From: Chiloscyllium plagiosum
Lineage: Eukaryota
Reading direction: 5' to 3'
NCBI RefSeq assembly: GCF_004010195.1
Contig: NC_057751.1
Location: 5,870,502-5,934,501 of the forward strand
DNA: 64,000 bases
The translations under genes were made by a program, and so were the position numbers. The notes below the pieces were generated by a model. The model was not told the origin of the DNA, did no database searches, and saw only the letters and a program-made list of their open reading frames with translations. Shown here in pieces: positions 3,355 to 60,094 of this stretch; within the stretch, counting starts at the first letter, position 1, and each line of letters opens with the position of its first letter.

Positions 3355-3532
3355 AATACTGTGGATGCTGGAAATCTGAAAGAGAAAGAAAAAGTATTGG
3401 AGAAACTCAGCAGCTTTAGCAGGAGACTTCAACACTGTTCTGAAGATCAGTCACACCAATCTCAAAACATTAACTGTTTCTCTCTCTGTGGATGCTACCA
3501 GACCTGCTGAATTTCTCCATCATTTTCTGTGT
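3355..3532. mobile_element. Degenerate PLE terminal-repeat inverted pair (family D)
   Basis: ggagaaactcagcag / ctgctgaatttctcc inverted arms with a decayed CTGAAGA core at about 3440; homologous to 55461-55633. Confidence 0.55.
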
Positions 3533-6194
3533 CTTGTTTACATTCTTGGGTCAACTGTATTCAGATTCAGATGAATCCTGCACAGGTACTTGGCTGAATT
3601 GTTCTTTTAGAGTTTGAGTGGATTGCATTCAGACACAGATTATTTGTGAACTGGGATTTTAGTGAATGATGTTTAGGTGCAGGTGAATAACAGTGGTGTT
3701 TGGACAGATTATACTCAGGGATTCGATTAATTATCTTCAAATGAAATATAGATCAAAAGTTACAGCTTGTTAGTGTTCGCAAATTCAGATGGATTATAGA
3801 CTGGAAGTTAATGGATCAGCTGCAGGTATTCACAGGGGAAAATATGGGTAATGTGCCTGGCTGTGTTGAAGCAGGTCCCATAAAGGTAATACACAAGTCA
3901 ACACTACATCTCATGAAGATGATTTTCTGTACTTGATTCTTGGGCCAAGAGTGACTATATGTGAGTTAACAGCTGGCTACCTCAACATCTCAGATGTACT
4001 CTAGATGTACTTAATAAATGCACCATCGAGCGTCTTGCTAAGCAAGAAGGCCATAAAACTTTGATCCCTGGACAGCTAACTGATTTCAACTAGGACAGCA
4101 TCTGGATGGCTGAAATTTGGTTGTACCAGTGCTCTTGGGAAGGGTGGAGCAACAGGAGAAATGAACCCAGGTTCTCACTCTTGCATAATGTGGACTTTAA
4201 TGCCAAGATTATTGAGTTGAGCGCCAGCCTTCATTATGTTGAATAACATGTCTACCTGGTTGAAAAGTAGTCATGTGGGCGAGGGAATTGGAGGTTGATA
4301 ACACCCTGGGACAAGATTCAGTAAGGAACTTTAAACACTGGAAAAAAAGTTCAGCGAGCACAGCAATAAAAGTCATATAAGTGGCAAGGGGAAAAGAGAG
4401 ATGAAATCATTGACAGATGCAAAGGATGCACAATTCTGAACACTGGAATAATCTTGACAAACAACCCAGAGACATGGAGAAAAATAGACTGCAACATTTT
4501 TGCTATAGCCAGTGTGACTCGTCAAACTATCCGATCTGAATAAGTCATCACGCTGAAGGAGTGAAGGAGCTGCACTGTGTTCCGTCCTGAATTAATGAAG
4601 GATAATTAGGTTTTGCAGTTCTTATTAAATCCAAGGAGAAGGGAGATTCCATTGAGCTGGACTGTGTGTGACTTTCCAGTGCTTTCAGGCTGCATCCAGC
4701 TGCTTTAATAACTTTGCCTTAATCCTCAGTAAACAAATGTTTGAGGGAGGTCCACTTGTTAACGTCTCTGGGTAGTATTGCTCACTGCAAATGGCACCTG
4801 CGTTATATGGTTTTTGTTTAACACGGTTAGTGAGGGACATTGCTATTTACTTTGGCAGACAGCACACAGCTGCTCTTATATTCTGGGGAAAGGATCCAAA
4901 AACTACTGAAGAATTCACTCTTGCAGGGCTGAATGGGCCAAAAAAAGTACGCACATTTCTTTCTCCACCGCAACCCCCTCCCCAATCCTAGGGAGTGGGT
5001 TTCAGAAAACTGATATTCAGTCCAAATCACATTAGCAACTAATTTGCTCCAGCTTCTTGATTTCAGATTGTATTGTGATCGTCCTAAAGCTGGGAGAGGA
5101 CATCGAGCCTGAATTAAATTATGACATTCAGTTGGTTCCCAACAGCTGCTGAAATTTAAATTGGAACAGAATTAGTCAAGCGAAAGGCAACGTGTTTTTT
5201 GAGTGTGAACAGCATCTGCTGTTTGAGTTCGTCTTCCACAGAGGAACTAGGGTTATTTTGAACATCGATTCTCTTCAAATCAGGAGGTGTGAAGTTTTAC
5301 ACAACAGTCTCAGTTCTTCACAGAGTTTGTGAGATTATTTTAATATTGCCTACCCTGGAGCGAGGAGATCATATTCTGTGGCAACTGCGTCTCAAAAATT
5401 CTCTCAGTTGATTTGTTTTTGAATTGTTGACTTCCCTTATTCCTGCAGCCATACTGCAGCTCATACTTTGGTTAAATAATGTTGTCATGAGGAAACGGGG
5501 AAATGAAGATATTGTTTTTTCCTGGGATCCCTGGGAATATGCCACTTCCTGAATGAGGTTCCCCCGCACATAAATACATCTGAGAAATACGATTGTGATG
5601 GATGTGGGAATTTAATCTTGCACTTGGAAACTGTAAGCCGCATTCCATGTTATTGTTATCTATGAGTTCAACTCCATGTCAAATCAATTTTTCTTAAATT
5701 TAATGCTTTTTGAAATCTTATTATCGAATCCCATTACTTGCTGGTGGGACGAAATGCATAGTAGTATAGTAATTGTGTCTGATTTAACCTGGCCAGTCCA
5801 TTAAAAAACAATCACCGTGTTTACTAGTGCAAATGAACTGATAAGTCAAAGTCTTTTCTGTGTGAGGTGAGACAGTTTTTTTTCCTGACTCCTAATGCCT
5901 GTATAGATCTTCTGCTTATATAATGCAATAGAAATACAGATTTTTGTGTGGAACTTATTTTTAGCGAACCCAATGGATTGGATTTGTACAAACACCTCAA
6001 TATGTTCGGTACCATGACAGGCAATCGTCATTTAACGTTGTGGTTGGGTTCCTGAACTTTGCCACTTTAAGTGAAATGATTTTAAGTGAAGCATAGATTC
6101 CAAAGGACATGTGTAAAAGCTGGAAGGAGGTTGCGCACAAGCATCTTTTTTCAGGACAAAAAAGTAATTGAAGCACTATCCAAAACATGGATGC

Positions 6195-7052
6195 ATTGTA
6201 AACTCTGAGTAGAACACCTTAAACTTTCAAAAAAATGTTGGCAGAGTGGGCAAATATGTGCAGATGAAGATTAAAGTGGAGAAATGTGAGATGATTCATT
6301 TTGGTCGGATGAATATTCAGAGGCAGTAAAGAAAGGGCACAATTCTAAAGCACGTGCAGGAGACGAGAGACATCCGCGTACACAAGCACAAATTATGAAA
6401 GGTGGCCGGACAAGTGGAAAGAACATTTGATAAATCATAGTGTATTCTCAGTTTTATCAATAGAATATGAGAGTACAAGAGCAAGAGGCTTCTTTCACTC
6501 ACGAGCTTGACCTCAGGAGGATTACTTTGTTCAATTTTGGATGCCACACTTTGGAAAGATATGAACACGTTGAACAGAATGCAGAAGAATGGTTCCAGGT
6601 ATGAGAAACTTCAGTTCTGAGAAAAGGTTGGAGAATTTGGGTCTTTTCTTGTTGGAGAGAAGACCAAAAGGAGATTCATAGAGGTTTTCAAAATCATGAG
6701 GGACTGGACAAGATAGACAGAGAGAAACTGTTACTGCTTGTGAAGGAATGGGAATGAGAGGACACAGATTTAAAGTGATTTGCATAAGAAATAAGTGCGA
6801 TGTGTGAAAGAAAGTTTTACACACAATGAGTAGTTTAAATCCGCAATATACTGCCGGGAGATAGATGAAGGTATTTTCAATCAAGGCATTCAAGTGGGCA
6901 TGAGATAATTACTTGAATAGAAAAAATATGCAGGATTTTGGGAAAAAGGCAAGAGATTGGCCCTAAAACAAAATGCTTTTTTAGAGAGTCAGTGTGGATC
7001 CAATGGACTTAAGGGTTTCTTTCTGCCCCCGACAATTCTGAGGTTCTGTGAT
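6195..7052 (+). mobile_element. CR1 LINE ORF2 3' part, decayed
   Basis: EWA-MQM--VEKCEMIHFG, VQFW-PH and RGHRFK-like CR1 motifs with many stops and frameshifts. Confidence 0.8.
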
Positions 7053-7339
7053 TGAACCATCTAAGTTGAAATACTTGACCTTGCAAACTTACTCTCTTTT
7101 AAAACATACACACTTCAAAGTCAAATCAATTAAAAATATGAAGGGAAAATCTAAATTACTAATTCCACTGAATTTGTTAAATATAAGGCACTCTTCTCCA
7201 GTACTGTGAAGGACAAACTGAATGCTCTTCTTTTCCTGAGGTATTGTCCAACAGTTTTACTTCAGTATGCTGAACATAAACACAGTTTACGGTCTACGTT
7301 ATGTCACAACCCAATAACAACAGTGATATTTAGACTTAA

Positions 7340-7600
7340 TTCATGGTTTTAACTTAGTAAAATACCAAGTGGATAAAATGCCCAGATGAACTAAAACTTT
7401 GTCCAAAGCAGATTTTTAAGGAGAGAGAGGTAGAAAGTTGAAGAGGTTTAGGAACGCAATTTCAAAGGGTTGAACTGAGACAGTTATAGGAAAGGCCACT
7501 GCAATAGAACAGTTAAAATAGGGGATATAAATAAGATTGGGGGAGTAAAGATTTCAGAGGGTTACATAGCTGAGGTTGTCATAGAAACAGTGAGAGAGAA
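7340..7600 (-). mobile_element. L2 LINE 3' remnant
   Basis: ttttaaggagagagaggtagaaagttgaagaggtttagg matches the reverse L2-like 3' end also seen at 19270-19478. Confidence 0.45.
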
Positions 7601-8707
7601 GGCCACAGGTGAATTATGCTTTGTGGAAGGCTGTTTGAAATTGGGGTGACAGGAGGTAAGTAACGTACAACAGTATTCATTGCCTCTGACCTGTCCTTGC
7701 AACTATGCTACTTGAATTGCTGATCTAATTCTGTTTCTGGTTAATGGTCACCTCCATAAGTTGGTCGTGCATGATTTTCCAATGGCAATACTACGTGGGA
7801 AAGGGCAGCTTCATAATAAGGTACAGTTCTGTCTATAATGACAATTGTGACAGTATCTAGTATTTTGTATTTGTTAATACGTTTCAAAGATCATAAGTGT
7901 CTCTTGAACCCCCTGCCAAAGGTGACTCTTTTGTTTTCTCACTTCCGTGTTGAGGTGGCTTTACAATTTTTCCCAGTTTATCTTGTCTCAGTCCAAATTA
8001 CAATGCTTCCAACCAGCTGAAACATTTAAAATCATATCTCCAAAAATAAATGGGTGTAGTATTTTGACAGTAATTCTGAGTCATCATGTCTCAACAGCGG
8101 AGGAAGGACCATTCTTCATTCCGCTGCAACTTTCACATTAATCCTGCTGTCAGTGTCAATCCAAATGCACACCATTCCTAACCACTGGACATGACATCTC
8201 TGTCTACTGTCTTGCAAGTAGGTTGTCTGCCATCTTGGTTGAGGAACACCTGGCTCTGGGAGAAGACACCCCATTGACCTTTGGGGCAAAACTACAAAGG
8301 TCTTAGAGGAAGCACTGGCGAGGCTGCCTCCCATACTTTCCACCAGCTCGGATAGTGATATCTCATGGGAACATCAGGTTTAAAATATTTTGGAGCATAT
8401 GCTGGTGAGCACTTCACTGCAACAGCTCCACAGCTGGCCGAGGAAGAGGCACCCCAGGAGTGACAGATAATTGCGTGGCAGGGAATGGCCCTTATTGGCC
8501 AGAAGTTGCAGGGATGCAGCTCTCCATACCATCATCTGGCTACCTCAGGGTCTGCTGGAGAGGAGCATACCCCTGCTCTCCATTGCCCCAGCCATGCATC
8601 CTCATGACTGAAGACCTAGTATTAGGGGGATGGACAACTTGGTGCACACTGCAGGTGCCCCTTCTGAGACAGGACTGTGTGAAGGGGCACCCAGCTGGAG
8701 GAGGAAC

Positions 8708-8734
8708 CACACACACACACACACACACACACAC
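8708..8734. repeat. (CA)13 microsatellite
   Basis: Directly visible. Confidence 0.95.
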
Positions 8735-9226
8735 TCCTCAGATGTCTTCTCTGAGCACACTTCAGAGTGGCCAGGCCTTCCAACTTCGCCCTGCCTCTCT
8801 CCTCTTACCTTTGACAGTTCAAGCCAAGGAGGCTTCAAGTTCCTGAGCACATCTGGGCCATCCAGACATAAACACTCCTGGGATCACCCAACCAAGCCAC
8901 CAATGTGCTCTGCTGCCAAGCAGGTTCTCTCCAACCTAGCCATAAGACACAGTGGGAGGGAAAGAAGAACAAACCCAATTTAGGACACTTAAATGGTATG
9001 GGTGATATCAGATTGTATATGAAATCTCAGGTTTTTACAAATATCACTGATTGTTAACATTAAACATTGACACTGCATCTCTTTGTTCAAGTGCTTGCAT
9101 AGCTCTGAATGTAACTGTGCCAACATGATGCCTAATTTCATGTCCACACAGGATGTACTGGGAATCAATGTCTGTGTTGACAACCTGCTGCATCATGTGA
9201 AAGCAAGATGAACAAGATGTATACAG

Positions 9227-9356
9227 GGAGAAAGTGAGGACTGCAGGTACTGGAGAGTTGGAGTCAAAACATATGGGACTGAAAAGCACAGCAGGTCAGG
9301 CAGCATCCAAGCAGCAGGAGAGTGGACGTTTAGGGCATAAGCCCATCATCAGGAAT
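9227..9356 (-). mobile_element. Short PLE terminal-repeat insert (family A) with mutated hammerhead
   Basis: Homologous to 16385-16514. TSD atacaggg at 9221-9228 and 9355-9362. Core CTGATGA...tAAAcgtc (G12 lost). Confidence 0.8.
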
Positions 9357-10323
9357 ACAGGGTTGGTTAATCATAAAGGTTGTGTGTAAACCATTGCTAC
9401 TTGGCCTGAAACATTTCTGTTCTATCCCTGACTTGTGTCCAATATTGCTGGTGTGAATAAGGTGGTCAGCAATGTCAGGGAGACTTGGCAGGGATTCGGA
9501 ACCCTGCAAATATGAATCCAGTATAGTGCGTAGGCATGTGCAGAATGCTGTTTCTCTTTAAAGGGCTTCACATTGGTGGATCTTGCAATTCATGTTTCTG
9601 CTTCCTAAGAGTCTTATAATTGAACCAGAGAGGTGCTGTGATGGCTGTCAGGGTTGGCAAATATCAGAAATCATGTTCTTGGATGATGGATGAATGTAGC
9701 TGTTGTCCATTGATTGTGTCCTGAGACACTGTTCGATGCTGAGAAACATGGAGTCTCCTTGCAGCCAGTGGCAAGTTGAAGTTGTCAGGTACCTGCTCTG
9801 GCTTCCGTGCTGGGAATTCTCAACATCTAGCTTGTTTGGTGTGCTTGGTATGACAGCAAGCTTAATATCAATGAGGCAAGCCATGGTGTGAATAAGTTGT
9901 TCAAGAAGTTATAATCCCCCTTACTTTGACAACATGCTGCTGCACAGCGAGAAACTTGCTTCACCTCTTGGCAAATGTATAGAAGATGCAGATGCAGCTT
10001 GCTTGACATCTCGGAGGATTCTGCCATAGCTCAGGCCCCTACAGATTCCCCCCGATGCATTTGTTTGCAAGGATGTTTTCTGCTTGAGCTTGGTTAATTC
10101 TAGTGGATGGTTGTTACTGATGTGAGTTATTTCTTTAAGTATTGCAAGGTCTCATTGAATAGATTGAGGGATGTTATTTGCGAGGATGAGCAGCCATTGA
10201 ATGCAAGTTATTCCTTATCATTGAGTAAAGTTATGTGTTAAGAAGTTTGTTGTGAGGACTTCATAACAGATACCAGTATACAGAGAACAGAGAACTCAGA
10301 GTGTCTGTAGAAGTGTAAAGGAC

Positions 10324-10774
10324 TTGGCCTCCTCCATTACCACAATGAATCAGACTGCAGATTTGAGGAACAATAGCTCATCTTCCACCTGAGCAGCCTT
10401 CAGCCCAGAGGACTCAACATTGAGTTCTCCAATTTCAGATAACCTCCACTCCCATCACCTGGCTCCCTATCCAGCTCCTCCCTGCTCCCTCTCATTCCTG
10501 TCATTGACCCTTCCTTCTAGCCATCAACCAGATTCATCCCTCCCATCGACCAAGCAGGTCATACTCTCTACCTGCCTTCACTTATCCTCACCACCACCCT
10601 GCCCCCCCCACCCCCTTTATTTGCAGCACCCCTTACACCATTCCCAGTCGTGAAGAAGGGTTACACTGAAACATCGACTTCCCCATCTCCTGGTGTTGCC
10701 TGGCTTGCTGTGTTCTTCCAGCCTCTTGCCTATCTACCTTGAATTGCAGCATCTGCAGTTTTTTTGTCTCTAAC
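10324..10774 (+). mobile_element. Penelope-like element 3' fragment (family E): GIY-YIG C-terminus plus terminal repeat
   Basis: LGLLH...EEQ*LIFHLSSLQPRGLNIEFSNFR*; TSD gaagtgta(a/g)aggac at 10310-10323 and 10775-10788; decayed hammerhead at about 10650. Confidence 0.8.
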
Positions 10775-11244: not shown

Positions 11245-11378
11245 TGGTCTTTTACTATAAATTCTGTGTCCTATGATCCTGCCCTACTAGTAACCGAGGA
11301 AGGAGCTGTGCTCCGAAAGCTCGTACTTTCAAATAAATCTGTTGGACTATAACCTGGTGTTGTGTGATTTTTCAATGT
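11245..11378 (+). mobile_element. PLE terminal repeat (family B)
   Basis: ccgaggaaggagctgtgctccGAAAgctc...ctgttggactataacctggtgttgtgtgattttt, homologous to the end of the 56353-59271 element. Confidence 0.8.
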
Positions 11379-14913: not shown

Positions 14914-15528
14914 AGGAGAAAGTGAGGACTGCAGATGCTGGAGATCAGAGTCGAGATGTGGTGCTGGAAAAGCATGGCAGGTCAGGCAGCATCTGAGGAG
15001 CAGGCGATTCGACGTTTCAGGCATAAGCACTTCATCAGGACTGAGGCTTATGGGTCAGGGCTGAGAGATAAATGGGAGAGGGGGTGGGGTTGGGGGGAGG
15101 TAGCTGGGAAAACGATAGGTGAATTAAGGTGAGGGAGAAGGTGATAGGTCAGAGGGGGCAGTGATAGACAGGTGCGGAGAGCGGCGCCGAATTGGAGGCT
15201 TGGGACTGGGATAATGTGGGGGGAGGGTAAATGAGGAAGCCGTTGAAATCCACATTTATCCCGTGTAGTTGCAGGGTCCCAAGGTGGAATATGAGGCGTT
15301 CCTCCACCAGGCGTCGGGTGACAACAGTTTGGTGGTGGAGGAGGCCCAGGACCTGTATGTCCTTGACGGAGTGGGAAGGGGAATTGAAGTGTTCAGCCAT
15401 GGGGCGGTGGGGTGGTCGGTGTGAGTGTCCTGGAGATGTTCTCTGAAACGATCCACAAGAAGGCATCCTGTCTCCCCGATGTAGAGAAGACCACACTGGG
15501 TGTAACGGATTCAGTACATGACATTGGT
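14914..15528 (-). mobile_element. Penelope-like element 3' fragment (family A): GIY-YIG domain plus terminal repeat
   Basis: GLLYIGETG..DRFREHL and PMAEHFNSPSHS..VLGLLH..RRLVEERLIFHLGTLQ (frameshifted); hammerhead at 15011-15038; imperfect TSD agacaatg..agaga. Confidence 0.85.
15011..15038 (-). ncRNA. Minimal hammerhead ribozyme motif (family A)
   Basis: CTGATGA-a-gtgc-ttat-gcct-GAAA-c-GTC; core intact, stem II weakened. Confidence 0.5.
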
Positions 15529-15529
15529 A

Positions 15530-15930
15530 GACAATGGAAGAGACAGACTGGAGGAGGATGGCGGTATCACCATATGGAAGTGCTGCAGTGAAGATGACTA
15601 GGTCTTAAACCATGGTCACAGTTATAAAGATGTCCTTTATGTGTTATCTGCCTTTTTCACTGCTACTGCAGGGGCAAAAGCCTGATTGGAGATTCATGCT
15701 TTTTTTGTGGAGAGGGTGTGAGTGATTAGAGCGGATTTGATTGGGAGTAAGACTATTTAATGAGTGAAAACCACCAAATTTATTAGCCAGCAGAGGGTTC
15801 AGGAAGGAAAGTTGCATGGTTATCAGTTTAGTGGAATGAGAGTCAGGTGAACACAAAATGGGTCTCATGAAAAAGATGAGCCTGGAGTTCCAAAATGATA
15901 TGTCTAGTTTGAGTGCGTCATGACCATAAG
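15530..15930 (-). mobile_element. L2 LINE RT fragment
   Basis: ORF ends SMNLQSGFCPCSSSEK, similar to the L2 motif LQSGFRPxHSTET. Confidence 0.55.
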
Positions 15931-16284: not shown

Positions 16285-16514
16285 AGTTGAAAAATGTGGT
16301 GCCTGAAAAACACAGCAGGCCAGGCAGCATCCGAGGAGCAGGAGAATCGATGTTCTGGGCATAAGCCCTTCTTCAGGAATGAGAATTCCTGAAGAAGGGC
16401 TTATGCCCGAAACGTCGATTCTCCTGCTCCTCGGATGCTGCCTGGCCTGCTGTGTTTTTCCAGCACCACATTTTTCAACTCTGGTCTCCAGCATCTGCAG
16501 TCCTCACTTTCTCC
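16285..16514. mobile_element. Hairpin PLE insert (family A): 96-bp inverted arms, 4-nt loop, 14-bp TSD
   Basis: Arms 16285-16380 and 16385-16480, loop gaga; caaaataactttaa at 16272-16285 and 16514-16527. Confidence 0.92.
16385..16420 (+). ncRNA. Minimal hammerhead ribozyme motif, intact core (family A)
   Basis: attc-CTGAAGA(16389)-a-gggc-ttat-gccc-GAAA(16409)-c-GTC-gatt. Confidence 0.7.
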
Positions 16515-18842: not shown

Positions 18843-19044
18843 AGCTAGCAAGTTTTGAGAAGATTTGTAGCCACATTTCAATCATGACATAACCAATCCA
18901 AAGAAACCTAAACACACACAAAAAAAGAAAGTGCGTCACTAACACCAGTGCTTCACCAGAGACTGACTGATGATGTTACCATCATGGTGATGAAACATCT
19001 GAAAATGAACCTTCCAGCTCAGCGAACAAATTTACATCCAGAAC
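18843..19044 (+). mobile_element. PLE terminal repeat (family C) with short inverted 5' piece
   Basis: Homologous to 32380-32526; inverted agttttgagaagatttgtagc at the 5' end; ttcttg duplicated at 18837-18842 and 19045-19050. Confidence 0.7.
18967..18999 (+). ncRNA. Minimal hammerhead ribozyme motif (family C)
   Basis: CTGATGA-t-gttacca-tca-tggtgat-GAAA-c-ATC; 7-bp stem II including G.U pairs; stem III CpG decayed. Confidence 0.55.
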
Positions 19045-19478: not shown

Positions 19479-19606
19479 TTCATCAGGTGGAAGGAGCAGA
19501 GCTCCGAAAGCTAGTGCTTCTAAATCAACCCGTTGGACTGTAACCTGGTATTGTGTGATTTTTAACTTTGTACACCCCAGTCCAACACCAGCATCTCCAA
19601 ATCATG
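19479..19606 (+). mobile_element. PLE terminal repeat (family B) with tiny inverted 5' piece
   Basis: ttcatcaggtg (reverse complement of cacctgatgaa) fused to gaaggagcagagctccGAAAgcta...ccaaatcatg. Confidence 0.8.
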
Positions 19607-24274: not shown

Positions 24275-24372
24275 GGTTGAAAAGTGTGGTGCTGGAAAAG
24301 CATAGTAGATTAGGCAGCATCCAAGGAGCAGGAGAATCGACGGTTTGTGCATAAGCCCTTCATCAGGAATGT
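24275..24372 (-). mobile_element. Short PLE terminal-repeat insert (family A), hammerhead decayed
   Basis: Homologous to 16285-16380. Confidence 0.8.
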
Positions 24373-27446: not shown

Positions 27447-27800
27447 CATGATGTGGAGGAGCCAGTATCGGATGGCGTGGACAAAGTTAAAAATCACACA
27501 ACACTAGTTTATAGTCCAACAGGTTTACTTGGAAGCACTGGCGTTCGGAGTGCTGCTCCTTCATCAGGTAGCTGTGGAACAGGACCATAAGACACAATTA
27601 TGAGCAAAAGATTATAGTGTCATGCAACTGAAATGATATATTGAACAAAAGTAGATTGCGGTTAAGTCTTTCATCTCAGAAAAGGTTGCAGGTTTTGGTT
27701 CATTAATATATAAATCCAAGGACTTCTTTTAAGTCACATTCTCGAGATAACATAAGGTTTGATAAAAAAAGGTGACGTCTCAGCTCAGACAATGCATTAA
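27447..27800 (-). mobile_element. Long PLE terminal repeat (family B)
   Basis: Reverse-complement homology to 58360-58560 plus 59149-59271; mutated hammerhead at 27538-27567. Confidence 0.85.
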
Positions 27801-28794
27801 AGTAAAGGTGAAGTAATGGCACAAAACTGCCGTGGAGGTAATTGGATTATGTCAGAACGGACGGACAAACATGGGAATTGTGAGATATGGAAGAACATCA
27901 AAACTTTTAGCTGTTGTGTCCACACATTTAGATGCGTTAAATTTCTTGATCGATATTCTTCAACAAAAATGAAAACAGAAAAGAAGTGAAGATGAGCAAA
28001 GGAACAGCTTCTTCCAAACATTCTGAGTGAAACTCAATACGCAAGGAGTCTTGCCTTTGATGGAAGTGATTGAAGCAGCCACCCCAGTGACAGTGCTCCA
28101 GATTTCCTAAGCTTCTCAGGCTTTGCTGACTCAGTCACAACCAACATTTGAAGGACTGAGGCTGCCAAGGTGACCTCCGTCTGCTCTGAGATTAACTAGG
28201 ATGAGAAACAAGGGTCATAAAGGCCCTTTTCTATTCCCTCCACTGTGTGAATGCTAAACACATCAGATTGCCTGTGATCACATAAAAGAAGCTTTGGCTG
28301 TTTTTCAAAGCAAAGGCCAACAAAGATATTTTCTTGTCCTTTGAATTGGCAAGCAGTCAAACATGGATCATGATGCTTAGTGCACAAGATTAGCTTAGAT
28401 TGGAGAAGTATGTGCTGAAACGCACAGAGTGAGAATTTGCACATATTGAAAACAAATTTTGCTTAAAAGCAAAATCTGTTTGAAGGCACAAACTATTTTA
28501 GTGATTTGTTTGAGATGCAAGCTTAATTTTTGAAGATACTCTGCTGGAGAGTCTTGTGTCTCATCTACAAGTTTGAAAAATAGTGACTGATTAAGATCTA
28601 AAATGCACTGTCTGAGAATGGGGTGGCTGCAGATTCAGGCATGACCTTCAAAAGAGAAAAGATTTGCAAGGCTGTGGGAGAAGGAAGGGGAATGGGACTA
28701 GCTGAGTTGCTGTTGCTGTGTGATCTGGCACAGGCTTCTTTCCATGCAGTAAAAATTCTGTTGTCCTAACCTTGTGCCAACTTCACGTCTTGTA

Positions 28795-28882
28795 ACAAGA
28801 ACAGAATTTGCTGGAAAAGCTAGGCAGTATCTGCAGAGAGAAATCAGAGTGAACATTTTGGGTCCAGTGACCCTTCCTCAGA
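28795..28882 (-). mobile_element. Short PLE terminal-repeat insert (family D)
   Basis: Minus strand CTGAGGAagggtcactggacccaAAAtgttc; homologous to 55572-55633. Confidence 0.7.
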
Positions 28883-28939
28883 TCTTGTTTCTGATTTCTG
28901 TTTTTAACCACTTCTTGTATGCCTTTATATCAAGAGAAG

Positions 28940-29112
28940 TCATGATTTGGAGATGCCAGTGTTGGACTGGGGTGTACAAAGTTAAAAATCACACCACGCT
29001 GCTCCGTCATCAGGTGACTGACAACCACCTGATGAAGGAGCAGCGTTCCGAAAGCTAGTGCTTCCAATGAAACCTGTTGGACTATAACCTGATGTTGTGT
29101 GATTTTTAACTT
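28940..29112. mobile_element. Hairpin PLE insert (family B) inside a CR1
   Basis: Inverted arms centred near 29021; TSD tatcaa(g/t)agaag at 28928-28939 and 29113-29124. Confidence 0.85.
29026..29060 (+). ncRNA. Minimal hammerhead ribozyme motif, intact core (family B)
   Basis: cac-CTGATGA-a-ggagc-agc-gttcc-GAAA-g-CTA-gtg; stem I cac/gtg. Confidence 0.7.
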
Positions 29113-29798
29113 TATCAATAGAAGAGTATAGAAGTTGGGAGGTCATGTTGCAGCTGTACAGGACATTGGTTTGGCCACTTTTGGAAAACTGTGTGCAATT
29201 CTGGTCTCCTTGCTATAGGAAGGATGTTGTGAACCTCGAAAAGATTAACAAGGATTGTGCGGGGTTTGGATAGTTTGAGCTACAGGGAGAGGCTGCATAA
29301 GCTGGGGTCATTTTTGCTGGAGCACTGGAGGCTGAGGGGTGACCTTATAGAGAGTTATAAAATCATGAGGAGCAATGGATAGGGTAAATAGACAAGGTCT
29401 TTTCCTGAGGGTAGAAGAGTCCAAAGCTAGAGGACATAGGTTTAAGATGAGAGGGGAAAAATTTAAAAGGGACCTAAGAGGCAACGTTTTCACGCAGAAG
29501 GTGATACATATATGGAATGAGCTGCCAGAGGAATTGTTGGAGGCTGGTACAATTGCAACATTCAAACATTAAAAATCACACAATACCAAATTATAGTCCA
29601 ACGCGTTTATTTGAAAGTACTGTTGGACTATAATTCTCCATCTCAAGGCATCTGGATGGGCATATGAATAAGAAGGGTTAAGAGGGATATGGGCCAAATG
29701 CTGGCAAATGGGACTGCACTAATTCAAGATATCTGGTCGGCATGGATGAGTTTGACGGAAGGGTCTGTTTCTGTGCTGTACAACTTTATGACTCTATG
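29113..29798 (+). mobile_element. CR1 LINE 3' end, with a small family-B inverted fragment at about 29570-29635
   Basis: ORF 29375-29572 MDRVNRQGLF..ARGHRFKMRGEKFKRDLRGNVFTQKV..WNELPEE. Confidence 0.9.
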
Positions 29799-29869
29799 AC
29801 CGTAGGAGGGCTGACCGCGAAAGATAGCTATTGATATCTCATTGCAGAGCAAGATGAGCAACATCATAT

Positions 29870-30295
29870 ATCGAAAAGGGTGGTGCTGGAAAGGCACAAC
29901 AGGTCAGGCAGCATCCGAGGAGCAGGAGAATCGACGTTTCAGGGATAAGCCCTTTATCAGGAATGTGGGATGGTGGAAGGGGGCTGGGAGATGAATAGGA
30001 GGATGGGGGGTTGGGGGGGGGGGGGAGGAAGATGGATGGGTAGGACAGTTTAAGAGGATGATGCTGAGTTGGAGGGTTGGATCTGGGATGAGGTTGGGGG
30101 CGGTGCAGTGGGGAGGTGAGATTTGGAAGCTGGTGAGGTCGACCTTGATGCCATGTGGCTGGAGGGCCCCAAGGTGGAAGATGAGGCGATCTTCTTCCAT
30201 ACGTTGGGTGTCTTCTATTTGCCATGGAGGAGACCCAGGACTTGTATATCCTTGGTGGAGTGGGAAGGGTAGTTGAAGTGGTTGGCCACAATGCA
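29870..30295 (-). mobile_element. Penelope-like 3' fragment (family A)
   Basis: QRMEEDRLIFHLGALQPHGIKVDLTSF endonuclease C-terminus; hammerhead at 29933-29960 with G8 mutated (CTGATAA). Confidence 0.85.
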
Positions 30296-31270: not shown

Positions 31271-31393
31271 TTTTTATTTTCCTGTCTGTCGCTTGATTTG
31301 TGGATGACATCTATTCAGGATTGTGAGTTTTTGGCCATGGGTCTTCATGCTACTCATCAGGTTGATTCTCGATTGACTGATCTTTGGGAATAT

Positions 31394-31695: not shown

Positions 31696-31965
31696 TCTTT
31701 GGGAATATGAGGCAGAGAAAGCCGTAGCTTTGCTGTGAAGACTGAACTGCAGAAGCAAAATGGGTTTCGTTGTTGCGGTCTGACACATCGCCAAAATCTG
31801 ACCCCCAACCCATCAATATCCCATGTGAGTAATGACTGTGCCCGAAGGTCTCATTTTATATGAAGTCATATGCATTATCCTACAGGGTCCAAGTGCTGTG
31901 GATAATTGGCAACGGGGTCAGGGCTGTAAACCTGGGAATGCCTTGTCAAGACTCTTGTGTGCTGC

Positions 31966-32526
31966 AAACCAACAGCCACTCTCAGACAACAACTCACCAG
32001 AACGAAGGACCCGATACCCAGCATGAGCAAAACCAGTGTAGTGTACAAAATCCCATGCAAGGACTGTAGAAAACACTCCATAGGACAAACAGGAAGACAG
32101 CTAACGAACACCAACTAGCCACGAAACGACACGACCAGCTATCCTTAGTAGCCACACACGCAGATGACAAGCAACATGAATTGGACTGGGACAACACTAC
32201 TATTATAGGACAAGCCAAACAGAGAACAGCCAGGGAATTCCTAGAGGCATGGCATTCATCCACAGATTCAATCAATAAGCACATTGATCTGGACCCAATA
32301 TACCGACCACTGCAACGGACAGCTGGAACTGACAACCGGAAGCGGCAGATTCAAACCACTACAAATGCTGGAGGAAAGATCACAGAAGCGCTTCACAGGA
32401 GGCTCCCAAGCACTAAGGATGTCACCGAGCCAGGGGACGAAACGTCTGCAACACCAATTCCCAGCTCGGTGAACAGAACCACAACAACGAGCACCCGAGC
32501 TACAAATCTTCTCACAAACTTTGAAC
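31966..32526 (+). mobile_element. Penelope-like element 3' part (family C): GIY-YIG endonuclease plus terminal repeat
   Basis: KPTATLRQQLTRTKDP..SVVYKIPCKDCRKHSIGQTGRQL..DWDNTTIIGQAKQRTAREFLEAWHS; hammerhead at 32410-32449 with CTAAGGA (G5A). Confidence 0.9.
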
Positions 32527-32589
32527 ATTGACATTAAGTCAAGGGCAGGAATACCAAGCCATAGACATGTCATCCAGCTACTCAGGGTG

Positions 32590-40912: not shown

Positions 40913-41040
40913 AAAGTGAGGACTGCAGATGCTGGAAATCAGAATCTAGATTTGAGTGGTGCTGGAAAAGCACAGCAGGTCAGGCAGCATCTGAGGAGCA
41001 GGAAAATCGATGTTTCAGGCAAAAGCCCTTAATCAGGAAT
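40913..41040 (-). mobile_element. Short PLE terminal-repeat insert (family A)
   Basis: Homologous to 9227-9356; gtcc(c)atttgc duplicated on both sides; core CTGATTA (G8 mutated). Confidence 0.82.
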
Positions 41041-41322: not shown

Positions 41323-41373
41323 TAACCCTGAGCGAGTTTTGAGAAGATTTGTAGCTCAGGTTGAGGTTCTGGT
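41323..41373 (-). mobile_element. 51-bp PLE 3' tip insert (family C) with 9-bp TSD
   Basis: tgattttat at 41314-41322 and 41374-41382; reverse complement agaacctcaacctgagctacaaatcttctcaaaact matches the end of 31966-32526. Confidence 0.8.
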
Positions 41374-45426: not shown

Positions 45427-45520
45427 TACTGATGAAGGGCTCATGCCCGAAATGTCATCTAACCTGCTCCTCAGATGCTGCCTGACCAGCTGTGCTTTTC
45501 CAGCACCCCACTTTTCAACT
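45427..45520 (+). mobile_element. Short PLE terminal-repeat insert (family A)
   Basis: Homologous to 16389-16480. Confidence 0.82.
45429..45456 (+). ncRNA. Minimal hammerhead ribozyme motif (family A)
   Basis: CTGATGA-a-gggc-tcat-gccc-GAAA-t-GTC; core intact, stem I poor. Confidence 0.55.
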
Positions 45521-51507: not shown

Positions 51508-51733
51508 CATGATTTGGAGGTGCTGGTGTTGGACTGGGGTGTACAAAATTAAAAATCACACAACACTAGGTTATAGTCCAACAGGTTTATTTGGAAGCAC
51601 TGGCTTTTGGAGCGCTGCTCCTTCATCAGGTGATTGTGGAGTACAACCACCTGATGAAGGAGCAGCGCTCCGAAAGCTAGTGCTTCCAAATAAACCTGTT
51701 GGACTATAACCTAGTGCTGTGTGATCTTTAACT
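51508..51733. mobile_element. Hairpin PLE insert (family B)
   Basis: About 90-bp inverted arms (about 51547-51637 and 51643-51733), loop ggagt; imperfect TSD tgtttataacag / tgtttttacag. Confidence 0.92.
51648..51682 (+). ncRNA. Minimal hammerhead ribozyme motif, fully intact (family B)
   Basis: cac-CTGATGA(51651)-a-ggagc-agc-gctcc-GAAA(51672)-g-CTA-gtg. Confidence 0.75.
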
Positions 51734-53620
51734 GTTTTTACAGGAGTCTCTTCAAAATACTTTTTGTTTCATTGAGAATTCTGCTTCACGTTACCTGACA
51801 GGGCAAGAGGCATCAGTGTGATGCACATCGCCATCAACTGGACATATGAACACATTACACCTGAGAAACCAGAAAAAGGTTGCACAGATTTTGTCTTTCG
51901 TTTCACAAACTAAAATTCCAGTCATAAAGATAACCATTTTTCTTGTGGATTTAGAAGTGCTCTCACTGTTACACTGAAATAACTTTGAAGTCTGTGTGCA
52001 CAGTACAGTGAAAAGGTAAAGGAGCTGCACCAGAGTACTTGTTAAATGGAGTTTCTTTTTCATAGTGCCAGTCTCTTGAAACTGTGTTTAGCAGGAATTC
52101 ATTGATGAGATTCTGCTGATTAAAAAAAGTTCAAAAAACAGTTGTGTGCACATAGTACAGGGAGGATATGAAATACTCTACTTCAAAAAAATCAAAAATG
52201 CAGAATTTGTTGGGATATATTTGTTGGGAAGAGGGAAATTTGAACTGAACAGATTGATGGTTGATCTTTGAAATCTCTGGTGTCCTCCAATTCTTGCTTC
52301 CTGTTTTGCTGATTTCAATGACTACACCAGTGTCAACCATGCCTTTTGCTGCCAAGTGGCGTGCCGATTGATCAGAAATCAAAATAATTTGGGCATTTGA
52401 ATTTTCAGATTCAAGTATGTTTTTATAAAAGAGGTCTGTTGCAACGAAAAAAATGACTATGGATATAAATTCACTGACTGTACAGCAGAGTCCTGTGTGC
52501 ATCCATGAAATATCACACTTCTACAGTGTTAGAGAAAGCTCCAACATAAAGATCAAAAAGGAAGAGATCATGAGAGATTAACCTCCCTCCCCCAAACCCC
52601 CTCACAGCAGGAAGTCATCTCCTGCAGACAAGTTTGCATTTTACCTCTCAGGGATATACATAACATGGGGTTATAAACCAAATGCTGCCCTTTGTGTGTG
52701 TTAGTGGCCTGGCATATTAGTGTATGGACTTGGGTTCTATGCAGGTGAAAGCATGAGAACAGACATGAAACATTCCTGCATTGCAGGTTAAAAGAAAGAG
52801 AAAAGGCACTCTCTCCTTTTCAGTGCTGCCAGTCCAGTCAGCTGCAGTCAATAGGAATAAGAACAAAAGAATTTCAGACAAGCCATAAAGACAGGAATGT
52901 TAAAACTGACTGCCCATTGCCAATGTTACCGGTAATGTCCTATGTAATGGCACAATGTTCTACTGTTTACTGTTGCTACTCAGAAACTGATCTACACATC
53001 CTTTTAAAAACTCTTGTTGAACTTGTTTTATTCCTAAATGTGTTGCATTATTATTGCTGTGGAAGAATCACTCAATTGTCTTTAAAAATTACCAGGGGAT
53101 GCAGAAAATTCCTCACGAAGTTAAACTTTAATTTGCAAAGTAAAACTGTGACAATCAGCCAATGGCTTCCCAATTGTCCACCAGTCCTTTGTCTCATTGC
53201 AGTTTATACAGTGTTGTTCCTGCACCTTTTGGATAATATTAGCATAACCAATCATATTGGCTTGCTTTGTCTTTCTCAACAAATCAACGTCCGCCACACT
53301 GGTTCCCTACATTACACTTAACCTATCACAGTTCACTACCATTATCTGTTACTGGAGCCCTGTAATGTGATCCTGGGCATGCATTACAACACTAAGTTAA
53401 CTACATAACCGCCAGAGTCACTTCCAAATGATTTCTTCCCACACTCTTTTGTTAATTGTAGAAAGCCTGGTCAAATTGGCTACTTTTAGAAGATAAATTC
53501 ACCTGATGTGGGAGTGAGGTGTCCAGAAAGAAAAGGATCCATTTTTAAATTACCAGACTTATGACCAACCGGGTGTGTGGGTGAATAAAGAAGCAGAGCC
53601 AGTTCAATCCAACTAACCTG

Positions 53621-54193
53621 TGTTGTGCACCAGGCCAGACCACCTGAAAATATTTTAAGAACGTAGACTAGACCCTAACTTTTTCTTATTTTAAAGGCAG
53701 ATGTGAAGTGAATATTCCAGGTGTGATGCAATGGGACAGACCATTCATCTTTAAGCAAAACAGAATTTATTTAAACACTGCAGTTGAAGCACAAACAAAA
53801 GAAAGCAGAATTTGGAATAACTCAACTATTGGAAAACTTAACCAACCTGATACAGCAAATTAACAAATTAACTGTTCCAATACAGTAACACCCCATGAAC
53901 ACACCCCTTGGCAAAAATAGGTAAATTCAAACACAGATTCTTACAGGCAGAAGGGAACAACTTCCAGAGAGAGATTTCAGAGAATGACAGAGGAATTTAC
54001 TGTTACTTTTCTGGAATCACACATTTTGTGACGACAACAGCTAAAACAAACTATAAGAAAAAACCTGAACTGGGAGAACTGGCCACTCCCCTTCCATTGT
54101 TAAACTAGACTCTTTGGCACCCCTGCCTTTACCATCTCTCTTCAAAAAAACTTAGAACAAAATAGCCCATTTTAAAGTAACTGTATCGTCACA
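53621..54193 (-). mobile_element. Solo LTR with 4-bp TSD
   Basis: TG...CA ends; cctg at 53617-53620 and 54194-54197; minus-strand aataaa; homologous to 58564-59148. Confidence 0.88.
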
Positions 54194-55405: not shown

Positions 55406-55460
55406 GAAGCCTGATTAAGTTTCTCATGGAAATAATCACCAAATAAATCAAAACTGATAG

Positions 55461-55633
55461 TACTGTGGATGCTGTAAATCAGAAACAAAAACAGAAACTG
55501 CTGGAAAAGCCCAGCAGATCTGGCAGCGTCCTTGGAGAGAAATTGGAGTTAATAATTCGGGTCAAGAGTTTCTGAGGAAGGGTCACTACACCCGAAACGG
55601 TAACTCTGTTTCTCTCCACAGATACTGCCAGAC
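55461..55633. mobile_element. Inverted-pair PLE insert (family D) with hammerhead-like core at 55572-55601
   Basis: tctggcagcgtccttggagagaaa / tttctctccacagatactgccaga inverted; CTGAGGA-a-gggt-cactac-accc-GAAA-cgg (cleavage triplet mutated). Confidence 0.75.
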
Positions 55634-56188: not shown

Positions 56189-56625
56189 TTAAAACTACAG
56201 AATGCTGCTGAGGAAATTGAATTATTGGGATTTCTTCTGTGAGCCACCCTACCCTTGATCCAACACCTAGAAGAGACCTACTTGCCCACTTGCTCTTGCT
56301 CACAAAAGTCTGATGGTCTCCAGCCTTTCCAAGTCTGCCACCTCCAGATTATAATGTGGAGGTTCCAGTGTTGGACTGAGGTGGACAATATCATAAGTCA
56401 CACAACACTGGGTTATAGTCCAACAGGTTTATTTGAAACTGTAAGTTTTCAGACCCCTGCTCCTTCCTCAAACAGCTAGTGAGAGAAAATGCATTGGACA
56501 CAGAAAAATTTACAAGTAAAAGATTAATGGGTCATACAACTTATGCGAATGTATTGAACAAACCTAGGTGGCTATTATGTCTTTAATCAGTTAGAATGGA
56601 GGTGCAGGTTTCAATTGATTAATAT

Positions 56626-57915
56626 GATGGCATTGCTGCAATGGACTCAGTGCTCAATACCAACAACTCCGGGCACCATCCTGCAACTCACCAGCTTCAT
56701 TCTCGACCACATAGTCTTTACCTTCGACAGCCAGTTCTGTAACCAGACACATGGAACAGCCATGGGGACCAAATTTGCACTCCAATATGCCAACACTTTC
56801 ATGCACAGGTTTGAACAAGACTTCTTTGCTGTGCAGGACCTCTGACCCATGCTTTACACCAGATACGTTGATGACACTTTCTTCCTCTGGACCCATGGCG
56901 AGAAGTCACTGAAACAACTACATGGTGATATCAACACGTTCATCATCAGACTACCATGGACTACTCTTTAGAATCAGTCTCATTCTTGGACACTTGCATT
57001 TCCATCAAGGTGGACACCTCGGTACCTCACTTCACCGCAAGCTCCTGGATAACCTCACGATGCTGTACTTCTCGAACTTCCACCCTAAACATAATAAAAT
57101 AGCCATCCCTGACGGACAAGCCCTATGCACGCACAGGATCTGTTTGGATGAGAAAGAATGCAACAAATACCTGAAGGTGTTGAGAGATGCCATCATAAGG
57201 ATGGGATATGATGCTTAACTCATTGATCGCCAGTTCCAACTGCCACAGTGAAAAACATAATGACCTCCTCAGGAGACAGACATGGGATCCAACTGAAAGG
57301 ATACCCTTCGTCATCCAGAATTTCCCAGGAGCAGAGGGACAACGCCATATTCTTTGCAGCCTGCACACATTATCAATGATGATGAGCATCTCGCCAAGAT
57401 CTTCCCTATGCCTCCACTTCTTGCTTTCAAACAACTCCCAAACCTTAAACAGACTGTTGTTTGCAGCAAACTACCCAGCCTTCAGGACAACATGGACAAC
57501 ACCATACAACCCTGTCATGGCAACCACTGCAAGACATGTCAAAGCATAGACATGGATACTATAGTTACACTTGGGGACACCACTCACCACGTACAGGGTA
57601 GGTACTCATGTGACTCAACCAACATTGTCTATCTCATACACTGCAGGCAAGGGTATCCCAAGGCATGGTACATTGGCGAGACCAAGCAGCGCTACTACAA
57701 TGGATGAATGAACACCATGCAGGGATGCTCCCCCCCAGTGAAGGAACACTTTAGTGGTCAAGGACATTCAGCCTCGGATCTTCGGGTGAATGTCCTCCAA
57801 GGTGGACTTCTGCTTATGCAACAACGCAGAATTGCTGAACAGAGGCTGATAGCTTTGTTTGGTACCCATGGAGACGGCCTCAACCCGGATCTTGGGTTCA
57901 TGTTACTCTACAGGT
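56626..57915 (+). pseudogene. PLE reverse transcriptase C-terminal half plus GIY-YIG endonuclease, disrupted
   Basis: QTHGTAMGTKFA.QYAN.FM; YTRYVDDTFFLW; linker PCHGNHCKTC; NIVYLIHCRQG..WYIGETKQ; EHFSGQGHS..RRIAEQRLIALFGTH. Confidence 0.92.
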
Positions 57916-58149
57916 GACCCCACTACTTTATACACTTTCATACACACACTCAAACACATGGACACATATGTACGCTCTGTCTCACCAACACACACACACT
58001 CACACAGACCCTGTCTCATTTACATAGACTGGCACTTGCATTCTCGCACAGGCATATACTCCCTCATACTCACGCACATTCTCTCTCAAGCAAGCACACT
58101 CAGACACATACTCACACGCATGCTGTCACACACATATACTCCCTCACAG

Positions 58150-58150
<1 letters not shown>

Positions 58151-58190
<40 letters not shown>
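58151..58190. repeat. (CT)9(CA)11 compound microsatellite in the PLE 3' region
   Basis: Directly visible. Confidence 0.95.
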
Positions 58191-58563
58191 TAAATCTATG
58201 GTGTAAATTTGCATCTGCAGATACATTCTATCTTGTTCAAAAAGCAGACGATCTGTAGACAGTCAGCCAATGTGGCATTTTATAAATTCTACTTTGGAAA
58301 TAAAACCAGTCTGACTCCAAGCTGAGATGCAAACAGACTTGAAACATGGCCTCACACCTAAAATGCATTGTCTGACCTGAGGTGTCACCTTTATTCTGAT
58401 AAAACCTGAAGTTATCTTGGGGACAGTGACTTAAAAGAAATTCTGTGATTTACATATTAATCAAAACCTGCACCTCCATTCTAACTGGTTCAAGACTGAA
58501 TAGCTGTCTAGGTTTGTTCATTACATTCGTATAAGTTGTATGACCCTTTGATCTTTTACTTGT

Positions 58564-59148
58564 TGTGATGATACTGCTCCTTGAACAAGGTTATGCTGTC
58601 CTTGGTTTTTTTGTCAGAGATGTCGAAAAGCAGCGATACTGAAAAGCCTGGGTTTAACTACTTGAAAATGCTTTCAAGTTTTTAAAACACACACTTGTGC
58701 AATGAAAGGGGAGTGGCCAGTTCTTCCAGCTCAGCTTGATTCTGGTTTGGGTTGGTTTGGTTTTAGCAAGCAGTTAGTTGTGAAGGTGCTGAGCCCAAAG
58801 AAGCAGGTCCATGCTGATCCTCCCTCTCTCTCTGACATCCCTCCTGCCAGACCCTGTGTTTGATTTTATCTTTTTTGCCAATTAGTGTTTTTTGGGGATT
58901 GTTGCAAGTATTCAGAACAGCATCATTAAATTAGGATAATTTGATGGGTTTTCGGATAGATTAAGTTATTCTATATTCTGTTCTCTTTTGGTTTTGTGTT
59001 GCATTGGGTAACCTTGCAAATAAATTCAGTTTTGTTTAAAACTAAGTGGTTGGACCAGTTGCATCACTTCTGGAATATTCACTTTATACCTGCTTAAAAC
59101 AATTAGCAAAGTTTGTTGAAATGTTTTGAGGGGGTCTGGTCCATTACA
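58564..59148 (+). mobile_element. Solo LTR nested in the PLE terminal repeat
   Basis: tgtgatg...ccattaca; aataaa near the 3' end; PLE sequence resumes at 59149. Confidence 0.85.
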
Positions 59149-60094
59149 TTAAAAATTCTGTGTCTGATGTATTTTCTCACATGCTGCCTGACGGAGGAGT
59201 AGGGGTTCCAAGTGCTTGTGGTTTCAATTAAACCTGTTGGACTATAACTGGTGTTGCGTGATTTTTGACCTCCAGATTAAGATGAACAGGTTTACATTCA
59301 CAATGATCAGAATTCAGTTTAGTGTTTAATTTGATGACTTCCATTTGTTCTGAAACATTCACATCAGAGTCACACATGAAATTGGTTGGTGCCCCAGTCC
59401 CAGCACCTCTCTGGCCTGAAGCAGACACTCTGGTGCACTGTTTTCTTTATCCCGGTGTTTTCTTTTGTGTGGGGGAGGTGGTGGGTGACAGAATATTCAC
59501 AATGCTTTCCTCCCTGGCTTGTCCAAACTAGAAATCCTTGAATAAAATTATAACATGCCATTTCAAACTTCAATGAAGTTGTTGGAAAATTGTCATGAGC
59601 ACAATGGGGGATTTGCTTCTCAAGCCATAAAGCAGGACTTGTTGGCCATAGAAGATGCATTTATAATGCTGCAAAAGAGTTTGATTTTCAGCCTGTCAAT
59701 CCTCCAGTATGGCTGATGGTAGGCACTCTGAGTGAAAGACTGTCCTAGTCAGCCCTGCTGACTCTTTTTCTTCTCATTTGTTTTTCTGAATTTGGGCAAC
59801 ATGGATGAGGTAGCATTTCTGAACAATCTCATCATGACTCCCTTCGTATTTGGTTTTTCACACATGTTCATGGTCATTTATCTTTCTGGACCCATTGAAT
59901 TCAGTGAAACAATTTGGAATTTGAGTTTATGACCTCTGTGTTACTCGTCCAGTGCTGGAATCCTGACTTTGACTGCTGTCTTTTGTATCCTTTTTCCAGA
60001 TGGCCTAATGGATGAATTAATTTAAAAAGGGATTTGTGTATACTGCATGTTGATGCCACAAAGCATACTGTAATTGAATGGTAGAATGCAGCAG

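Follow-up and report, generated by a model that had tools for sequence, protein, structure and literature searches.

Minimal type I hammerhead ribozymes are known from the terminal repeats of Penelope-like elements (PLEs), where they lack loop III, carry one nucleotide that lies between 9 and 10.1, pair G10.1 with C11.1 and have a palindromic 15.2-16.2 (PMC4209133). With this loopless palindromic stem III, a double hammerhead of low activity can form from two copies within the same tandem transcript (PMC4209133). In the one PLE reconstituted in vitro, cleavage depends on the element's own protein and insertion is mainly from uncleaved RNA (PMC11167929). We analysed a 64-kb stretch of the genome of the shark Chiloscyllium plagiosum, referred to below as the window, and its motifs share the published sequence and pairing features listed above. 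The first-pass annotation of this DNA had identified them as minimal type I hammerheads of PLE terminal repeats, and this identity holds. In our reading, to which we give a probability of about 90%, they are such hammerheads in the terminal repeats of three PLE lineages, mostly left as short, mutated copies that are likely inert.

Family profiles used with nhmmer, together with manual parsing, gave 22 full-length and 2 partial hammerhead footprints in the 64-kb window, close to the about 20 motifs claimed earlier. The full-length footprints belonged to families A (8), E (2), B (7), C (2) and D (3), and both partial ones, in which only part of the core is present, to family B (19485, plus strand; 29013, minus strand). 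With broken copies counted, the density was about one per 2.7-2.9 kb. The common layout was CTGAnGA, one nucleotide, stem II, GAAA, ACGT or AGCT, and NUH; it was found where the annotation had placed it, including 51640-51690 (+), 31450-31495 (-) and 16381-16425 (+). The exact pattern CTGANGAN{9,22}GAAASST matched 5 times, compared with a mean of 0.27 and a maximum of 3 in 100 shuffles. The Rfam 15 covariance-model scan of the window returned no hammerhead family among 18 matches at E up to 10. A strict descriptor, core plus stem II, matched 7 times versus 0 in 60 shuffles. With one core mismatch allowed, there were 11 matches versus a shuffle mean of 0.05. The weak microRNA matches of the Rfam scan were two long inverted repeats. 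A candidate motif at 22333 was dropped as unrecognisable, and the extra matches of the loosest descriptor at 1285, 11396, 27373 and 45903 were rejected after inspection. The sites and coding remnants of families A, E and D were as follows.

16389..16416, plus strand: family A hammerhead, core intact from C3 to C17; right arm of the inverted pair 16285-16480
16349..16376, minus strand: family A motif with G12A and A13G, forming the left arm of the inverted pair 16285-16480
15011..15038, minus strand: family A motif with intact core and mismatched stem II, lying downstream of an endonuclease remnant
15242..15547, minus strand: family A GIY-YIG endonuclease remnant (tblastn), likely Neptune-type
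29933..29960, minus strand: family A motif with G8A, lying downstream of an endonuclease remnant
30062..30289, minus strand: family A endonuclease C-terminal remnant
41009..41036, minus strand: family A motif, G8U
24339..24366, minus strand: family A motif, G12A and A15.1C
9325..9352, minus strand: family A motif, G12U
45429..45456, plus strand: family A motif, core intact, stem I lost; the copy starts at C3
31459..31485, minus strand: family E motif, core and stems intact; the sole well-formed site without an inverted pair over the core
10650..10675, plus strand: family E motif, C3G
10323..10436, plus strand: C-terminal endonuclease remnant lying upstream of family E; 47% to that of family A (E 5e-6)
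55572..55601, plus strand: family D motif with U16.1G, facing a partial inverted copy (about 55461-55562)
28852..28881, minus strand: family D motif, G12A
3440..3471, plus strand: family D-like motif, G12A, stem II degraded

Those of families B and C were the following.

51651..51679, plus strand: family B motif with intact core and stems, forming the right arm of the inverted pair 51532-51748; AATAAA at 51689-51694
51601..51629, minus strand: family B motif, G12A and U16.1C; left arm of the inverted pair 51532-51748
29029..29057, plus strand: family B motif with an intact core, facing a partial inverted copy
28996..29016, minus strand: partial family B copy that retains the 5' half of the core and has an internal deletion
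29067..29087, plus strand: position of the family B poly(A) hexamer, which is mutated here, and of the A-tail sites 29084 and 29087 from family reads
27539..27567, minus strand: family B motif, A15.1C and U16.1C
11294..11322, plus strand: family B motif, U4C
19485..19513, plus strand: partial family B copy, an inverted snippet replacing the 5' core
56443..56471, minus strand: family B motif, C3U; inverted 5' terminal repeat of a 5'-truncated element
56626..57920, plus strand: family B broken ORF with RT (YVDD), CX4CxxC linker and GIY-YIG, Neptune-type features
59188..59217, plus strand: family B motif with four changes in the core, in the 3' terminal repeat of the element at 56443-56471 and 56626-57920, behind an unrelated insertion
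31954..32426, plus strand: family C GIY-YIG endonuclease remnant with Penelope/Poseidon-type features, running into the motif
32413..32446, plus strand: family C motif, G5A here; A9, the inserted U and G10.1 form an ATG at 32419
18967..18999, plus strand: family C-like motif with an intact core but broken stems I and III

The whole core, that is 11 conserved bases and NUH, was kept in only 7 of the 22 sites and mutated in the other 15, and core and stems were both kept in 4. The family majority sequences of A and B have an intact core. The extra nucleotide between A9 and G10.1, a feature of the earlier claim, was present at 22/22 sites. The G10.1-C11.1 pair was G-C at 14 sites, G.U at 7 and broken at 1, and the loopless palindromic 15.2-16.2 pair was C-G or G-C at 14 of 22, U.G at 2 and broken at 6, with a compensatory G-C in family B. 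Compensatory changes between families were also found in stem I, where 1.1-2.1 is C-G, A-T or T-A and 1.2-2.2 is T-A, A-T or C-G, and in stem II, where 10.3-11.3 is G-C, A-T or C-G. Over 7 stem positions and 22 sites, 124 of 154 cells paired compared with 81 after partner shuffling, and none of 5000 shuffles reached 124, a statistic that ignores the kinship among copies. The pair counts were anchored on C3 and G12, as the cross-family MAFFT alignment sets B one column off. The claimed stem covariation between families was thus borne out. Moreover, all the stems that had been quoted are present in the sequence, but D and E have one stem II in common (GGGT/ACCC versus ACCT, where G-C becomes G.U through a change on one side only), and the fifth stem I pair of E is private to the copy at 31485, with position 31490 differing in 89% of the contig depth. 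Stem I of family A consists of 2 bp, a mismatch and 1 bp, the third pair being the mismatched one.

The same layout was found in 121 metagenome loci. There the palindromic stem III was present in 119 of 123 motifs, stem I positions 1-3 paired above shuffles though they were absent from the search pattern, and 22 of the 121 loci had a PLE protein match. None of the 121 loci had DNA similarity to the window at E 1e-5, so these loci support the class and not the families described here.

Judged by sequence, families A, B, C, D and E form three lineages, A/E/D, B and C, rather than the five families originally claimed, because A, E and D are homologous outside the motif. RT or EN remnants adjoin motifs of families A, B, C and E, which confirms, including by tblastn, the reported joining of these four to RT or GIY-YIG remnants. 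For family D the window contains no coding remnant, and only the similarity of its tail to A links this family to PLEs. The relatives of the remnants are shark proteins with 59-96% identity. A Pfam search with 9 window translations gave no meaningful family, and the PLE identity of the remnants is based on homologue searches and tblastn. A CX2-5CxxC linker between RT and the C-terminal GIY-YIG was found in the family B ORF of the window and in P0013 and P0010; for families A and E, the full motif was absent from P0032 and present in its 42% relative in L007. By these features families B, A and E are likely Neptune-type PLEs, indirectly so for A and E. P0002 and P0009, of family C, have a C-terminal GIY-YIG without the zinc-finger motif in the linker, and the features of family C point to a Penelope/Poseidon-type element; these clade names are based on linker motif and similarity, not on a tree. 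Furthermore, the core of family C overlaps the final codons of the upstream ORF, and EDVT or EDVS ends 5 of 8 shark relatives. There was no intact ORF or full tandem PLE within the 64-kb window.

In 14 copies of A and B, the non-CpG divergence from the family majority was 9/140 for the cores compared with 30/510 for the tails (P=0.84, with low power), while the divergence at CpG sites was 17/66 versus 45/766 (P=1e-6). The motif contains CpG mutation hotspots at C11.1-G12 and C15.2-G16.2. The depth of run X15 restores the motif at positions where window copies are broken: 32415, which is G5 of family C, read G instead of A in 98%, and the majority letter restored the motif at 29046 in 96%, 29944 in 97% and 28851 in 95%, these being 4 positions among the 40 of 356 differences listed. 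Inverted pairs contain 3 of the 4 well-formed sites, and the predicted pairing probability of stem II in context was 0; the hairpins of these pairs are predicted to bury the motif at the 3 sites. In nearest-neighbour models the double-hammerhead fold was 10-18 kcal/mol above the best dimer fold at all 4 well-formed sites, so folding itself gives activity no support. In addition, two intact cores of one family on the same strand were at least 22.6 kb apart, although the motif reportedly requires a dimer. The very large pool of latent self-cleaving motifs proposed in the annotation is therefore overstated, since cores decay at the rate of the flanks, 15 of 22 are mutated and 3 of the 4 well-formed sites are predicted to be bound in hairpins. 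The motifs of the window are likely inert at these sites and are remnants of a known kind of element. Selection on the motif would likely act in the active parent element, not in inserted copies.

Many short copies were 90-130 nt long and started at the 5' edge of the motif. In family A, 6 of 8 copies started 0-13 nt upstream of C3, whereas only one of the 10 B copies and none of the 8 A copies started near the cut site. We infer that the RT of the element begins at an internal site of the RNA, about 80-120 nt beyond the core, and frequently halts at the 5' edge of the motif, which would produce stubs of 90-130 nt spanning the cut site. The number and the common start of the short copies would also suit a separate non-autonomous family, retrozyme- or SINE-like, that spreads via its own circular RNA, and retrozymes derived from PLE ends are reported for one chondrichthyan genome (bioRxiv 10.64898/2026.07.22.740005). 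However, no head-to-tail array of motif units occurred among the 24 sites, only solo or inverted copies, and the short copies are colinear with the ORF-joined long copies of the same family, and end at the same two 3' positions (about +82 and +121 in B). Such a separate family is highly improbable, and the short copies fit better as truncated PLE ends.

The remaining evidence concerns RNA. The poly(A) signal of family B lies 9 nt past the cut site, and A-tails 27-30 nt past the cut site were found in 1,223 RNA reads from genome-wide copies. In run X19, the loose ends with A-runs comprised 552 reads at 29084 and 671 reads at 29087, which is 12-15 nt after the place of the family AATAAA and before a GU-rich stretch. 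Among the 9 B copies of the window, 5 have AATAAA and 2 more a variant, and none has an A-run longer than 3 at the tail sites. First mates in the A-tail bin were 923 minus and 228 plus, which fits sense RNA in what appears to be a 3'-end library. The A-tailed reads, this strand bias and the absence of genomic A-runs are what would be expected if the intact copies were a functional pool in host RNA, with B ends serving as host 3' ends whose tail could be cut off, given a partner motif or the protein of the element, as by the mammalian Clec2 hammerhead. Yet there was no pile-up of RNA read ends on the whole stretch or at the cut sites, although a tailed product of 27-30 nt is probably lost, and the depth was alike on either side of the cut site (1733 at 29046, 1830 at 29069), which shows that some tailed RNAs keep the motif uncut. 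Of 2306 RNA reads, 498 carried a 2-nt insertion, compared with 0.06% of X15 depth, which indicates that a few loci dominate the signal, and only 76 of 8904 reads were at least 99% alike to the window, so the window copies are not the expressed ones. Together with the neutral decay of the window copies, this makes a functional host-RNA pool very unlikely. It is similarly improbable, as a further idea, that the B repeats act as portable 3'-end cassettes, in which the cut site precedes AATAAA by 9 nt and a poly(A) site in use in shark cells by 27-30 nt, and that host transcripts ending in them would lose their tails only with a second motif or a Penelope protein. If true, many genes would have an mRNA switch that senses transposons. 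We did not find a cut site followed by a used poly(A) site described for PLEs in the literature searched.

Compared with the PLE hammerheads of PMC4209133, the window likewise has several covarying families in one genome, with copies that are mostly solo ones from truncated PLEs and some that are closely paired on opposite strands; stem II is short here, 4-5 bp, in A, B, D and E. The coelacanth and Xenopus genomes had about 4,000-9,000 descriptor hits each in that study, and the density in the window is far above this but includes broken copies. No shark terms were present in the supplement text searched. In Poseidon PAc of Anolis carolinensis an ATG also lies at the start of stem II, as at 32419 in family C, and RT starts internally 111-118 nt into the ORF, just as the family C copy ends about 100 nt beyond its ATG (PMC11167929). 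Described Neptune and Penelope/Poseidon insertions (PMC8557442 and PMC3846280) agree with the window in 5' truncation, an adjacent inverted 5' copy, an optional tail of 30-40 bp and a CX2-5CxxC linker that Neptune-type ORFs have and Poseidon-type ORFs lack, and differ in that the window is without an intact ORF or full tandem element. The non-LTR retrozymes of bioRxiv 10.64898/2026.07.22.740005 likewise have a type I hammerhead from PLE ends and are reported for one chondrichthyan, but are defined as tandem repeats with a motif per unit, an arrangement found at 0 of 24 window sites. The motif, its location at PLE ends, the inserted nucleotide, the palindrome and the inverted pairs are already published, and the class adds little to them. 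What this shark genome offers is very many copies from three PLE lineages as material for the question of the role of PLE hammerheads, and the cut site of family B with its used poly(A) site provides a concrete and cheap assay system.

The window has a GC content of 41% and is rich in repeats. The motif consists of CTGAnGA, one extra nucleotide, stem II, GAAA, a loopless palindromic stem III and NUH. An exact sequence pattern gave five matches compared with 0.27 expected, and a descriptor of the core and stem II gave seven matches compared with none in 60 dinucleotide shuffles. With one core mismatch allowed, the same descriptor gave 11 matches compared with 0.05. Family alignments and nhmmer delimited 22 full-length footprints between 3440 and 59217 (eight of family A, two of E, seven of B, two of C and three of D), besides two partial copies of family B. 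When the footprints were anchored on C3 and G12, stems were paired in 124 of 154 cells, compared with 81 after shuffling of the partners, and two-sided changes between families were found at 1.1-2.1, 1.2-2.2, 10.2-10.4 and 15.2-16.2. The first-pass annotation had reported about 20 hammerhead motifs with covarying stems; descriptors, shuffles and family profiles confirmed the motifs, and the footprint count and the pairing data bore out their number and covariation. An Rfam scan of the window returned no hammerhead up to E=10, which we attribute by inference to the absent stem III loop.

The division into five families was not upheld. Families A and E were 74-82% alike across about 80 nt, the tail of D was common to A, and stem II was identical in D and E. 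These results indicate three lineages, A/E/D, B and C, and independent covariation counts only across these three.

The coding remnants in the window showed 59-96% identity to proteins of Chiloscyllium, Hemiscyllium, Rhincodon and Scyliorhinus, which makes a shark the likely source of the DNA. The remnants next to the motifs were as follows:

130-220 nt upstream of the family A motifs at 15038 (minus strand) and 29960 and the family E motif at 10650: endonuclease remnants (tblastn with shark relatives)
31954-32426: GIY-YIG frame of family C, its end overlapped by the motif (tblastn with shark relatives)
56626-57920: broken reverse transcriptase (RT)-linker-endonuclease frame of family B; its 5' end bears a terminal repeat in inverted orientation, and a direct copy follows at 59188

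Thus the proposed joins of A, B, C and E to GIY-YIG or RT remnants held, while family D had no coding remnant within the window. By the CX4CxxC linker criterion of PMC8557442, family B would be Neptune-type and family C, where the linker is absent, Poseidon-type. At 32413-32430 the family C core lies over the last ORF codons, and A9, the inserted U and G10.1 together create an ATG that lies in the following frame (32419). Five of eight shark relatives terminate in EDVT or EDVS, which corresponds to the codons beneath the core. The nucleotide inserted after A9 was U in both C copies and A in 18 of the 20 others. Two shark gene models, named as isoform X3 of NT5DC1 and isoform X3 of MAP3K7, terminate in the endonuclease sequence of family C, suggesting that ends of Penelope-like elements (PLEs) were annotated as alternative last exons. 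The 3' end of the family B element is interrupted by a member of an unrelated repeat family (about 58665-59113), which recurs at about 60226-60645 and 53686-53974, the copies being 69-73% alike across 300-450 nt.

All 11 core bases and NUH were kept in seven of the 22 footprints (16389, 45429, 51651, 29029 and 18967 on the plus strand; 15038 and 31485 on the minus strand), and stems I and II were also kept in 16389, 31485, 51651 and 29029. All of these four except 31485 lie in inverted pairs, where the predicted pairing probability of stem II fell to 0 with 60 nt of context; the stems of 31485 were likewise lost in the widest context examined. The stretch 51532-51748 was predicted to form a hairpin of -160 kcal/mol. 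This stretch and 16285-16480 are near-perfect inverted repeats with about 100 bp per arm, which gave weak Rfam microRNA matches and, if transcribed, would form long double-stranded RNA. The nearest intact cores of the same family and strand were 22.6 kb apart. The earlier interpretation is partly supported: the motifs belong to a known PLE class, but they are mostly broken or buried, and the proposal of a very large pool of latent self-cleaving motifs is weak.

In a small sample of 14 copies from families A and B, changes outside CpG sites were equally frequent in cores (9/140) and tails (30/510; P=0.84), while CpG-site changes were four times commoner in cores (17/66) than in tails (45/766). 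The motif contains a CpG at C11.1-G12 and, in family A, another at C15.2-G16.2, which suggests that methylation-driven decay likely disables inserted motifs quickly. Among the differences listed in the contig comparison (40 of 356), the family majority carried the working letter at all four broken motif positions, which makes it likely that the parent elements were under selection; given the small sample, single copies may have been as well.

Six of eight A copies started within 13 nt of C3, as did the B copies 51651, 51629 and 29029, and a start near the cut site was found only in B 29648. The one copy that might derive from a cleaved template is a core-less family B tail (29564-29633), which starts a few bases from the cut site, next to a short inverted snippet. 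For copies that span the cut site, we infer that the template RNA was uncut or re-ligated. This agrees with PMC11167929, which reports unprocessed RNA as the main substrate and an internal start of RT. The 5' edge of the copies may mark either a transcription start or an RT stop. B copies ended at about +82 or +121, the difference being an optional tail of 30-40 nt. Fragments that hold only 23-28 nt of the family C tail (41335-41361 and 18850-18871) share their end point with the 32413 copy.

An RNA read run (X19) was compared with 28700-32700; a second run (X20) contributed no reads. Only 76 of the 8904 X19 reads reached at least 99% identity, indicating that the reads come from copies other than those in the window. 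In family B, 552 reads had loose ends with A-runs at 29084 and 671 reads at 29087, positions that lie 27 and 30 nt, respectively, beyond the CUA cut site. AATAAA occurred 9 nt after the cut site in five of nine window B copies, and at the tail site no A-run in any of the nine exceeded 3. The tail sites, within 29057-29087, follow the family's AATAAA and precede a GU-rich stretch. Among the loose ends listed for the contig runs (six per run), there was no such A-run. Our interpretation is that family B carries a poly(A) site that is in use. A 2-nt variant was present in 498 of 2306 RNA reads compared with 0.06% of the depth in the contig run X15, which suggests that a few loci supply much of the family B RNA signal. 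In our literature searches, no PLE hammerhead followed by a poly(A) site was described; PMC6765202 summarises the Clec2 case, in which the hammerhead follows the stop codon and precedes the poly(A) signal. It is very improbable that family B is a ribozyme-gated poly(A) cassette of this kind. Read depth was alike on either side of the cut site and read ends did not pile up in X19, indicating that uncut tailed RNA exists; a short cut product would probably escape detection.

A literature search for Penelope hammerhead ribozymes in shark gave one paper, in which "shark" is the name of the motif, and the text available from one of two supplement files of PMC4209133 held no shark terms. A 2026 preprint (bioRxiv 10.64898/2026.07.22.740005) included a single chondrichthyan, in which it reports retrozymes related to PLEs. 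In metagenome contigs (7 of 64 parts scanned), the general pattern gave 121 loci with 123 motifs; stem III was palindromic in 119 of the 123 motifs and 22 of the 121 loci had a PLE protein match, indicating that the A/E/D layout is widespread. In one contig, oppositely oriented motifs (loci L006 and L007) flank a long PLE ORF (595 aa in L007), and two other loci (L050 and L057) contain motifs in close inverted pairs that resemble the window pairs. The ATG at the family C core is placed as in the Anolis Poseidon element (PMC11167929), and the family B arrangement of inverted 5' and direct repeats matches that described in PMC8557442 and PMC3846280. Every structural feature in the first-pass annotation was already described in PMC4209133, which reported motifs in fishes, coelacanth, Xenopus and reptiles, with no monomer activity found and low dimer activity. 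Those motifs are mostly solo and also occur as opposite-strand pairs, as in the window. The window motifs are new, probably uncatalogued representatives, from shark, of a class that was already known together with its structural features (PMC4209133).
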